DNA from: Escherichia coli
Lineage (GTDB): Bacteria > Pseudomonadota > Gammaproteobacteria > Enterobacterales > Enterobacteriaceae
NCBI RefSeq assembly: GCF_003334335.1
Contig: NZ_QOWQ01000002.1
Reading direction: 5' to 3' (one strand)
Length of the DNA stretch: 64,000 nucleotides
Positions 23,861 through 26,762 of this stretch are shown here, in pieces. Below the pieces are notes generated by a model that saw only the letters and a program-made list of their open reading frames with translations, searched no databases and was not told where the DNA came from. Positions within the stretch are counted from its first letter, which is position 1. Each line of letters starts with the position of its first letter. Position numbers and translations under genes: made by a program.

Positions 23861-25219
23861 ATGTTGAGTATTTTTAAACCAGCGCCACACAAAGCGCGCT
23901 TACCTGCCGCGGAGATCGATCCGACTTATCGTCGATTGCGCTGGCAAATTTTCCTGGGGATATTCTTTGGCTATGCGGCTTACTATTTGGTTCGTAAGAA
24001 CTTTGCGCTTGCTATGCCTTATCTGGTTGAGCAGGGATTCTCACGCGGTGATTTAGGTTTTGCCCTTTCGGGGATCTCGATTGCTTATGGATTTTCGAAA
24101 TTCATCATGGGTTCGGTATCGGATCGCTCGAATCCGCGCGTTTTCCTGCCCGCAGGTTTGATTCTGGCGGCGGCAGTGATGTTGTTTATGGGCTTTGTGC
24201 CATGGGCGACGTCGAGCATTGCGGTGATGTTTGTACTGTTGTTCCTCTGCGGTTGGTTCCAGGGGATGGGGTGGCCGCCGTGTGGTCGTACTATGGTGCA
24301 CTGGTGGTCGCAGAAAGAACGTGGCGGCATTGTGTCAGTGTGGAACTGTGCGCACAACGTCGGTGGTGGTATTCCGCCGCTGCTGTTCCTGCTGGGGATG
24401 GCCTGGTTCAATGACTGGCATGCGGCGCTCTATATGCCTGCTTTCTGCGCCATTCTGGTGGCATTATTCGCCTTTGCGATGATGCGCGATACCCCGCAAT
24501 CCTGTGGCTTGCCGCCGATCGAAGAGTACAAAAATGATTATCCGGACGACTATAACGAAAAAGCGGAACAGGAGCTGACGGCGAAGCAAATCTTCATGCA
24601 GTACGTACTGCCGAACAAACTGCTGTGGTATATCGCCATCGCCAACGTGTTCGTTTATCTGCTGCGTTACGGCATCCTCGACTGGTCACCGACTTATCTG
24701 AAAGAGGTTAAGCATTTCGCGCTAGATAAATCCTCCTGGGCCTACTTCCTTTATGAATATGCAGGTATTCCGGGCACTCTGCTGTGCGGCTGGATGTCGG
24801 ATAAAGTCTTCCGTGGCAACCGTGGGGCAACCGGCGTTTTCTTTATGACACTGGTGACCATCGCGACTATCGTTTACTGGATGAACCCGGCAGGTAACCC
24901 AACCGTCGATATGATTTGTATGATTGTTATCGGCTTCCTGATCTACGGTCCTGTGATGCTGATCGGTCTGCATGCGCTGGAACTGGCACCGAAAAAAGCG
25001 GCAGGTACGGCAGCGGGCTTTACCGGGCTGTTTGGTTACCTGGGCGGTTCGGTGGCGGCGAGCGCGATTGTTGGCTACACCGTGGACTTCTTCGGCTGGG
25101 ATGGCGGCTTTATGGTAATGATTGGCGGCAGCATTCTGGCGGTTATCTTGTTGATTGTTGTGATGATTGGCGAAAAACGTCGCCATGAACAATTACTGCA
25201 AGAACGCAACGGAGGCTAA
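23861..25219 (+). CDS. glpT: Glycerol-3-phosphate:phosphate antiporter (MFS)
   Basis: 452-aa 12-TM ORF recognised as GlpT. Confidence 0.96.
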
Positions 25220-25223
25220 TGGC

Positions 25224-26300
25224 ATGAAATTGACGCTGAAAAACCTTAGCATGGCGATCATGATGAGCACTATAGTCATGGGAAGCAGTGCAATGGCGGC
25301 GGACAGCAACGAAAAAATAGTCATCGCCCATCGCGGTGCCAGTGGATATTTGCCGGAGCATACGCTGCCAGCAAAAGCGATGGCGTATGCGCAGGGAGCG
25401 GATTATCTGGAACAGGATTTGGTGATGACCAAAGACGACAATCTGGTTGTTCTGCATGACCATTACCTCGATCGTGTTACTGATGTTGCCGATCGTTTCC
25501 CGGATCGGGCGCGCAAAGACGGTCGTTACTACGCGATAGATTTCACGCTGGATGAAATTAAGTCGTTGAAATTTACCGAAGGTTTCGATATTGAAAACGG
25601 TAAAAAAGTGCAGACTTATCCGGGGCGTTTCCCAATGGGTAAGTCCGACTTCCGGGTGCACACCTTTGAAGAAGAGATTGAATTTGTTCAGGGGTTAAAT
25701 CACTCTACCGGGAAAAATATCGGTATTTATCCAGAAATCAAAGCGCCGTGGTTCCATCATCAGGAAGGGAAGGATATTGCGGCAAAAACGCTGGAAGTGC
25801 TGAAGAAATATGGTTACACCGGTAAAGACGATAAAGTTTATTTGCAATGTTTTGATGCTGATGAGCTGAAGCGTATTAAGAATGAGCTGGAACCCAAAAT
25901 GGGCATGGAGCTCAATCTGGTACAGCTGATTGCCTATACCGACTGGAATGAAACGCAGCAGAAACAGCCGGATGGAAGCTGGGTTAATTACAACTACGAC
26001 TGGATGTTTAAGCCGGGTGCCATGAAACAGGTGGCGGAATATGCAGATGGTATTGGTCCGGATTACCATATGTTGATTGAGGAGACATCGCAGCCGGGTA
26101 ATATCAAACTCACTGGCATGGTGCAAGATGCTCAGCAGAATAAACTGGTAGTGCATCCTTATACCGTGCGGTCAGATAAACTGCCTGAATACACTCCTGA
26201 TGTGAATCAGTTATATGATGCTCTGTATAACAAAGCGGGTGTAAATGGGCTGTTTACTGATTTCCCTGATAAGGCAGTAAAATTTCTTAATAAAGAGTAA
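25224..26300 (+). CDS. glpQ: Periplasmic glycerophosphodiester phosphodiesterase
   Basis: Start set at MKLTLKNLSMAIMMSTIVMGSSAMA (signal peptide), followed by HRGASGYLPEHT; 4 nt after the glpT stop. Confidence 0.94.
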   Translation: MKLTLKNLSMAIMMSTIVMGSSAMAADSNEKIVIAHRGASGYLPEHTLPAKAMAYAQGADYLEQDLVMTKDDNLVVLHDHYLDRVTDVADRFPDRARKDGRYYAIDFTLDEIKSLKFTEGFDIENGKKVQTYPGRFPMGKSDFRVHTFEEEIEFVQGLNHSTGKNIGIYPEIKAPWFHHQEGKDIAAKTLEVLKKYGYTGKDDKVYLQCFDADELKRIKNELEPKMGMELNLVQLIAYTDWNETQQKQPDGSWVNYNYDWMFKPGAMKQVAEYADGIGPDYHMLIEETSQPGNIKLTGMVQDAQQNKLVVHPYTVRSDKLPEYTPDVNQLYDALYNKAGVNGLFTDFPDKAVKFLNKE

Positions 26301-26308
26301 TGTTACTG

Positions 26309-26334
26309 CAGGATGGCGTTCATGCGCCATCCTG
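26309..26334 (+). terminator. Perfect 10-bp stem hairpin (CAGGATGGCG-ttcatg-CGCCATCCTG) downstream of glpQ
   Basis: Inverted repeat read directly; sits between glpQ and the convergent yfaH remnant; no strong T-run, so terminator function is uncertain. Confidence 0.45.
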
Positions 26335-26341
26335 TCTCATA

Positions 26342-26548
26342 TCAAATTTTTCCAATCGCCACTAATTGTTCCATGCACATTTGTAGTAAAAACAGTGGAC
26401 TGCCTTCTACCGGCTTTTCTTTAGCCAGCAACGAAATCTGTCGATAGAAAGTTGGTTCGAGAGGAACGGAACACAATTCACCTGCAATGCTTTTCAGCGT
26501 TAACTCTGGTTGTAAGGCGATGCCTAATCCCTGTCGAATAAAATTCAT
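26342..26548 (-). pseudogene. yfaH: LysR-family regulator remnant (C-terminal fragment only)
   Basis: 68-aa ORF resembling the C-terminal co-inducer domain of LysR-type regulators; no HTH-containing N-terminal portion upstream. Confidence 0.7.
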
Positions 26549-26762
26549 CGCTGTATCCGCCTGATTAAATTCACATTTTATCTGCTGGGCGCACTATTAG
26601 TGGTAGTGGCTGGTGGAATCTATGCGCTGCAAATGAAGGGTAAAAGCGGTGTCAAGCTAGTAGTGGCAAAAGAAATTCATTAATACGACACGTTTCATTA
26701 AGATTTTCCTCAGGTAACCACCTATAGTCATTGTCGTTAATAAAAATGACAGGCGATAGGGT

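Follow-up and report, generated by a model that had tools for sequence, protein, structure and literature searches.

The annotated gene yfaH of Escherichia coli is, with a probability that we put at about 0.93, a non-functional remnant of a gene for a LysR-type regulator, left by a 1,879-bp deletion that also truncated a neighbouring MFS transporter gene. The remnant was studied in a stretch of E. coli DNA of 64,000 nucleotides, called here the window, and in the corresponding segments of other genomes. Its pseudogene status as such is already known: the RefSeq annotation of MG1655 lists yfaH (b2238) as a pseudogene. No literature calling b2238 a pseudogene was found, and the mentions of yfaH in papers are incidental. 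The finding is therefore an ordinary one, in which a long-standing y-gene of K-12 is confirmed as a pseudogene and the exact causal event is given.

Results

The locus and its flanking genes

In the window glpT (23861-25219, + strand) is followed by glpQ (25224-26300, +), which according to the ORF list and genome annotation is intact and forms the left flank of the locus. The yfaH ORF (26342-26548, − strand) consists of 68 codons and TGA, and alignment to intact alleles equates it with codons 225-292 of an ancestral LysR-type regulator of 292 aa. The right flank is the intact inaA (26763-27413, +), with its start 79 bp past the stop codon of the MFS remnant described below, and then come yfaE (27467-27721, −) and nrdB (−). 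The 551 bases around yfaH are 100% identical to K-12-type genomes, for instance JM109.

glpQ and the LysR remnant converge, and between their 3' ends there is an inverted repeat forming a hairpin with a perfect 12-bp stem (26308-26335; RNA fold of −23.2 kcal/mol, z = −5.8), which is probably a terminator shared by both. A consensus scan for intrinsic terminators called none in 26200-26850, and this hairpin was missed because no T-run follows it. In the same interval a consensus scan called no sigma-70 promoter. As to whether the regulatory region of inaA enters the MFS stump, the mar/sox/rob box AYNGCACNNWNNRYYAAAY, allowing at most 2 mismatches, had no match in 26300-26800, and its count across the window was not above that of shuffles. 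A search against Rfam at a permissive threshold over 26100-26900 gave only sub-threshold matches, RmaA (24 bits, gathering 57) and Ysr197 (15 bits, gathering 167), and both were dismissed.

Farther along the window, the mechanically derived nrdB ORF (27721-29082, −) is over-extended at its 5' end, being 453 aa long versus 376 aa annotated, and the surplus is arginine-rich, REP-like repeated sequence upstream of nrdB. In the spacer upstream of nrdB the MG1655 annotation also places yoaM, an ORF of 12 codons (36 bp).

Two truncated genes meet between glpQ and inaA

The sequence-only reading had seen in the 68-aa ORF no more than the C-terminal co-inducer part of a LysR protein, and the Pfam search bears this out: the ORF matches LysR_substrate and has no HTH_1. 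Taken together with 12 in-frame codons upstream of it, the ORF gives 80 residues that match LysR_substrate (PF03466) at model positions 131-189 of 209 (E = 2.2e-6), while HTH_1 (PF00126) has no match in the remnant. The second claim, that no HTH-encoding segment lies upstream, was examined by the tblastn comparison proposed in that reading, run with the intact syntenic 292-aa LysR protein over the whole 64-kb window. Residues 213-292 alone were found, at 26584-26345 with 86% identity and E = 5e-40, there was nothing for residues 1-212, and all remaining matches had E > 0.4. Thus descent from the LysR family is clear, and yfaH is not a functional member of it because both defining domains fail the test, HTH_1 being lacking and the effector-binding domain incomplete. 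What survives is the last part of the effector-binding domain, without HTH, linker helix and native start.

The full remnant, comprising codons 213-292 and the native stop, occupies 26342-26584 (−) according to tblastn, Pfam and the partial pseudogene that PGAP annotates in an identical genome. LysR homology thus passes the yfaH ATG by 12 in-frame codons (QIKCEFNQADTA-MNFIRQGLGIAL...) up to 26584 and then gives way to stop codons; in the three minus-strand frames upstream of the homology there are stops and no LysR-like sequence, the other two frames being stop-filled. The ATG itself (26546-26548, −) is derived and is not the native start: in the alignments all intact alleles and outgroups read ATC (Ile225) at this codon and all sampled deletion alleles ATG, so that Ile225 has mutated to Met.

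The DNA directly upstream of the LysR remnant is the 3' end of an opposite-strand gene for an MFS transporter, of which codons 363-396 (YLLGALLVVVAGGIYALQMKGKSGVKLVVAKEIH) and TAA are preserved at 26579-26683 (+). This stump is recognised by tblastn, where residues 363-396 alone of the MFS protein were found in the window (94% identity, E = 3e-13), by comparison with the intact gene of strain EC17GD31 (L001) and by PGAP, which annotates in the identical genome two abutting partial pseudogenes, a LysR gene "missing N-terminus" (26342-26584, −) and a "hypothetical protein, missing N-terminus" (26579-26683, +). The 34-codon MFS stump accounts for the remainder of the glpQ-inaA spacer. The sequence-only reading was therefore right that a LysR gene had been cut down by a deletion, and it missed the second truncated gene, the LysR homology upstream of the ATG and the derived nature of this ATG.

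The intact LysR-MFS pair is the ancestral state

In EC17GD31 the space between glpQ and inaA contains a full LysR gene (−) and a divergent gene for an MFS transporter of 396 aa (+). The same arrangement, with a LysR protein of 292 aa, was found in O157:H7 and several other E. coli. At yfaH the window agrees with the O157:H7 regulator (WP_000176738, 292 aa) in position, codon-for-codon over residues 213-292 (86% amino-acid identity) and in the stop codon. Relative to this gene and its divergent MFS neighbour (WP_000660231, 396 aa), K-12 is devoid of LysR codons 1-212, the promoter region and MFS codons 1-362. Seven amino-acid replacements distinguish the K-12 remnant at positions that are invariant in intact LysR genes.

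In a scan of one genome per species the Escherichia cryptic clades and E. whittamii displayed the gene order nrdB-yfaE-inaA-MFS-LysR-glpQ-glpT, and in Kluyvera and Pseudocitrobacter the MFS-LysR pair adjoins yfaE or inaA. Proteins of Salmonella and Citrobacter also fall in the 90%-identity cluster of the MFS protein. Because the pair is syntenic in these relatives, the long form is ancestral and the K-12 deletion is derived.

The intact LysR protein carries HTH_1 at residues 3-63 (E = 1e-17) and covers positions 2-188 of the LysR_substrate model in Pfam. With both domains it is a typical LysR-type regulator, similar to CysB (4gwo/1al3; E = 7e-22 over residues 3-248) and resembling the structures of BenM (3k1m) and OxyR, while yfaH is no more than a fragment. 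Compared with NCBIfam models of LysR-family regulators it reached no cut-off, the best scores being GltC with 129 bits (cut-off 350) and CidR with 126 bits (cut-off 415). The MFS protein resembles exporters of DHA1 type and remains below every NCBIfam cut-off.

The LysR gene of EC17GD31 (L001:12071-12970) has lost 1 bp from an A/T run close to its 3' end, which replaces the last residues and extends the protein from 292 to 299 aa (...ESGKFDMRQDGA). This indel is peculiar to that strain, and the normal 292-aa protein ends exactly as yfaH. The same strain has a transposase of the ISNCY family between yfaU and glpC (L001:4123-5082), beside a truncated hypothetical gene.

A single deletion at an 8-bp repeat

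A deletion between glpQ and inaA as the source of the remnant had already been suggested from the sequence, and the comparison with intact alleles supports it. In BLAST alignments K-12 and the intact allele form two collinear blocks with a clean gap of 1,879 bp, flanked by an 8-bp direct repeat, and the ancestral long form is present in related genera. The junction is the sole surviving copy of TTTATCTG (26577-26584); the match reaches 26589 if one gap is allowed. Intact alleles have two copies, one in LysR codons 213-215 (as reverse complement, Q213-I214-K215) and another in MFS codons 362-364 (I362-Y363-L364), and the distance between them was 1,879 bp without exception in the E. coli intact alleles examined (L001, L018, L019, L020). 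The lost 1,879 nt are composed of LysR codons 1-212 with the HTH, the linker and most of the effector domain (636 nt), the divergent intergenic region containing the promoter (151 nt) and the MFS gene from its start through the right-hand repeat (1,092 nt). One junction and a set of private substitutions are common to all deletion alleles, including a Shigella dysenteriae contig where 5 of the 8 changes are found, and therefore a single deletion event is indicated.

Replication slippage and microhomology-mediated illegitimate recombination classically leave such a loss between short direct repeats, and we infer that the deletion arose in one of these ways. Between glpQ and inaA the ancestor had the 292-aa LysR-type regulator (−) and, divergent from it, the 396-aa MFS transporter (+). 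A single event between the two 8-bp TTTATCTG repeats, probably slippage or illegitimate recombination, removed 1,879 bp and left two 3' stumps abutting at 26577-26584. The LysR stump, devoid of its DNA-binding domain, native start and promoter, then drifted, and the conversion of an Ile codon to ATG explains the 68-codon ORF that gene finders call.

The remnant evolves without protein-level constraint

Selection was estimated in 12 further deletion alleles taken across the identity range, making 13 with K-12, in 7 intact E. coli alleles and in 3 Escherichia outgroups. By the Nei-Gojobori method pN/pS between deletion and intact alleles is 0.87-1.77 for all 80 codons and 1.9-2.2 for the 32 junction-proximal ones. 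Between intact alleles it is 0.09-0.14 overall, and for the same 32 codons 0.00 versus Escherichia outgroups (L007, L008) and 0.06-0.08 in comparisons with the divergent intact allele L021. The LysR remnant thus evolves without constraint at the protein level.

Secondary lesions are also present. A 1-bp deletion truncates the yfaH ORF in 2 of the 12 sampled deletion alleles (L016, L025), leaving the 68-codon frame open in 10, and this frameshifted haplotype circulates, its protein P0041 occurring on 90 contigs. In four others (L014, L015, L026, L027) the LysR frame is interrupted by stop codons before the ATG is reached. Public protein sets contain many truncated or frameshifted versions of yfaH of 44-86 aa, and the product is found only in E. 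coli and Shigella that carry the deletion.

Purifying selection on a conserved stand-alone 68-aa protein had been named beforehand as the observation that would overturn the pseudogene assignment. The outcome favours a pseudogene: pN/pS is near 1 compared with about 0.1 in the intact genes, there is no synonymous excess, frameshifted versions exist and some haplotypes are truncated. Thus the properties of a deletion pseudogene come together here, with an intact homologue at the same locus in relatives and outgroups and a defined junction at which the start codon and promoter were lost, as well as relaxed constraint and secondary disabling mutations in a small sample of 13 alleles. Most probably, yfaH has no product with a function.

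Alleles of the locus across E. coli

The region was compared by megablast with 5,426 complete E. coli genomes. The query split at position 328-340, since many genomes match only its left part ("LysR | glpQ") or only its right part ("MFS transporter | inaA"). Coverage of the K-12 query was 80% or more in 3,077 genomes, and by the junction-proximal 111 nt approximately 3,113 carry the K-12-type deletion at no less than 95% identity. For the intact LysR-MFS pair at least 80% of the intact locus was covered in 1,213 genomes, and about 1,242 were assigned by the 111 nt (1,139 at 90-95% and 103 at 60-80% identity). No match was obtained for 1,056 genomes by coverage and for 1,071 by the junction-proximal 111 nt. 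The shares are therefore ~57% for the deletion, ~22% for the intact pair and ~20% for neither.

The no-match allele (~1,060 of 5,426) has a 202-bp glpQ-inaA spacer (for example L004:1549-1750 and L005:3898-4099, from E. coli BH100 and AVS0972) with no remnant of LysR and ~20 diverged bases of the MFS 3' end. Its origin from the O157-type arrangement is not supported, since the ~100-bp filler of this empty allele has no similarity to the O157 insert; the filler does not match the K-12 or the intact arrangement either.

Several other variants were registered along with the three main alleles. In O157:H7 and some others an extra gene for a "hypothetical protein" of 356 aa stands between glpQ and LysR (L030:6525-7595, O157:H7 3-5-1); it is frameshifted in L017:1-1044 and has no NCBIfam match. 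It accompanies the K-12-type deletion as well as the intact pair, and this implies that it was moved by recombination or was gained and lost repeatedly. A divergent intact LysR allele, differing at ~75% of synonymous sites (pS 0.75), occurs in strains F9792 and XJ34 (L021:267-1145, L022:874-1752), and the adjacent MFS 3' end and upstream region of inaA are nearly identical there to the common type; this looks like a sharp boundary of recombination or import inside the locus. In GDSC2227PM an IS1A element stands in place of the LysR gene and the initial half of the MFS gene (L023:1533-3004), and in other strains (H1 and H31) IS1 is found within the K-12-type or the intact allele; these events are independent. 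The LysR-MFS module appears to have been lost repeatedly, and the glpQ-inaA locus is a hotspot for the loss and exchange of genes.

Substitutions clustered beside the junction

When 13 deletion alleles were compared with 7 intact alleles and 3 outgroups and the changes were polarised, eight substitutions turned out to be private to deletion alleles, at 26574, 26561, 26560, 26546, 26544, 26512, 26511 and 26490 (interval 26490-26574). All eight are nonsynonymous in the LysR frame (Y216C, H220Q, P221A/S, I225M, S226N, L237Q with 2 nt changed, and T244S), and four are C-to-G transversions. They all lie on the LysR side, no more than 95 nt from the junction; the distal 145 nt are free of them (Fisher p = 0.0008), as are the 105 nt of the MFS side (p = 0.007). 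This clustered and entirely nonsynonymous pattern, confined to the LysR side, is not predicted by uniform neutral decay. The S. dysenteriae contig has the same junction and only 5 of the 8 changes, and so they accumulated in at least two steps.

A sensitive blastn search for an ectopic template with the 111 junction-proximal bases found one place per genome in the 5,426 genomes and no paralogous donor. Nearer to the site, the derived AAATTCAT at 26541-26548, to which yfaH owes its ATG on the reverse strand, has an identical counterpart, GAAATTCAT, 132 nt away at 26672-26680, where the MFS stump ends. This identity could reflect a templated double substitution or chance.

Discussion

The most economical reading of the cluster is that the stump drifts while recombination with intact alleles homogenises all sites but those tightly linked to the junction; polymorphisms that deletion and intact alleles have in common in the distal part fit such exchange. 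This reading does not account for the asymmetry between the LysR and MFS sides. It may be supposed instead that the eight changes came from one or a few mutational bursts, by error-prone repair synthesis at the break or by templated switching, and the remnant would be a pseudogene in this case too. The significance of the clustering on both counts, the share of C-to-G transversions and the match of AAATTCAT to GAAATTCAT speak for such an origin, which nevertheless seems to us rather unlikely: the S. dysenteriae allele demands at least two steps, homogenisation spares junction-linked sites anyway and agrees with the shared distal polymorphisms, E. coli genomes offer no ectopic template elsewhere, and a match of 8-9 nt within 550 bp is possible by chance.

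Considerably less probable is that the LysR stump was co-opted as a stand-alone microprotein of 68 aa, with selection making its start codon (Ile225 to Met) and the nearby changes. The derived ATG is present in all 13 deletion alleles and in that of S. dysenteriae, the private substitutions are clustered and without exception nonsynonymous, and pN/pS of 1.9-2.2 near the junction also speaks for it, but eight nonsynonymous changes of eight are not so improbable under neutrality (p about 0.1), three of them are upstream of the ATG and hence outside the ORF, and many nonsynonymous variants segregate. Some support for translation could be sought in AGGCGG, a weak Shine-Dalgarno-like motif which, as read from the sequence, stands 8 nt upstream of the ATG in K-12 and was made by two private changes; it is confined to part of the deletion clade and is replaced by AGTCGG or AGTCAG in other deletion alleles. 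The ORF is frameshifted in a circulating haplotype, no sigma-70-like promoter was found upstream, and a fragment of about one third of the effector domain is doubtful as an autonomously folding unit. Accordingly, we give very little credit to positive selection as the cause of the eight changes, be it for a translated 68-aa microprotein or for reshaping of DNA that is now ~190-270 bp upstream of inaA.

As to expression, only RNA-level data were found: RNA of yfaH was detected by qRT-PCR and is reported, as one row of a table, to change 7.7-fold in a cpxR mutant overexpressing NlpE (PMC9600279), which also counts in favour of a microprotein; the methods passage of this paper gives no sign of a strand-specific assay. 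In MG1655 yfaH was swapped for a marker cassette serving as a linked marker, linked to gyrA (PMC2714960), and because of this replacement the gene can be regarded as dispensable.

The NCBIfam model NF007272 (PRK09729, "hypothetical protein", 68 positions) might likewise be taken as a sign of a genuine protein, and the yfaH ORF matches it end to end with 164.8 bits. However, this model evidently stems from early annotations and not from functional data. The corresponding segment of the intact 299-aa LysR protein of EC17GD31 also passes its cut-off (140.8 versus 139 bits), the only NCBIfam cut-off that this LysR protein reaches, and therefore NF007272 is not an independent protein family. With such a score, this curated "equivalog" model could put the label "hypothetical protein" on real regulators.

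The reverse polarity, in which the K-12 form is ancestral, the LysR-MFS pair was inserted elsewhere and yfaH is a small native gene from which the longer genes arose, is ruled out by junction structure and outgroup synteny even though the short form is the commonest allele (~57% of complete genomes), since the in-frame 3' ends of both genes abut in K-12 at a microhomology of which the long form has two copies, an insertion cannot produce matching halves of two ORFs, the long form stands in the same neighbourhood in the Escherichia clades, E. whittamii, Kluyvera and Pseudocitrobacter, and strong purifying selection acts on the intact genes and none on the stump.

With yfaH read as the remnant of a regulator gene, the "YfaH protein" entries of the databases, NF007272 and UniProt YFAH_ECOLI, where it is listed as "Putative protein YfaH", describe a gene fragment. 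The presence/absence polymorphism with three alleles, namely the intact pair, the 1,879-bp deletion and nothing, could serve as a lineage marker in E. coli. Strains with the intact pair could reveal the substrate of an uncharacterised LysR-MFS module that is hidden in K-12.
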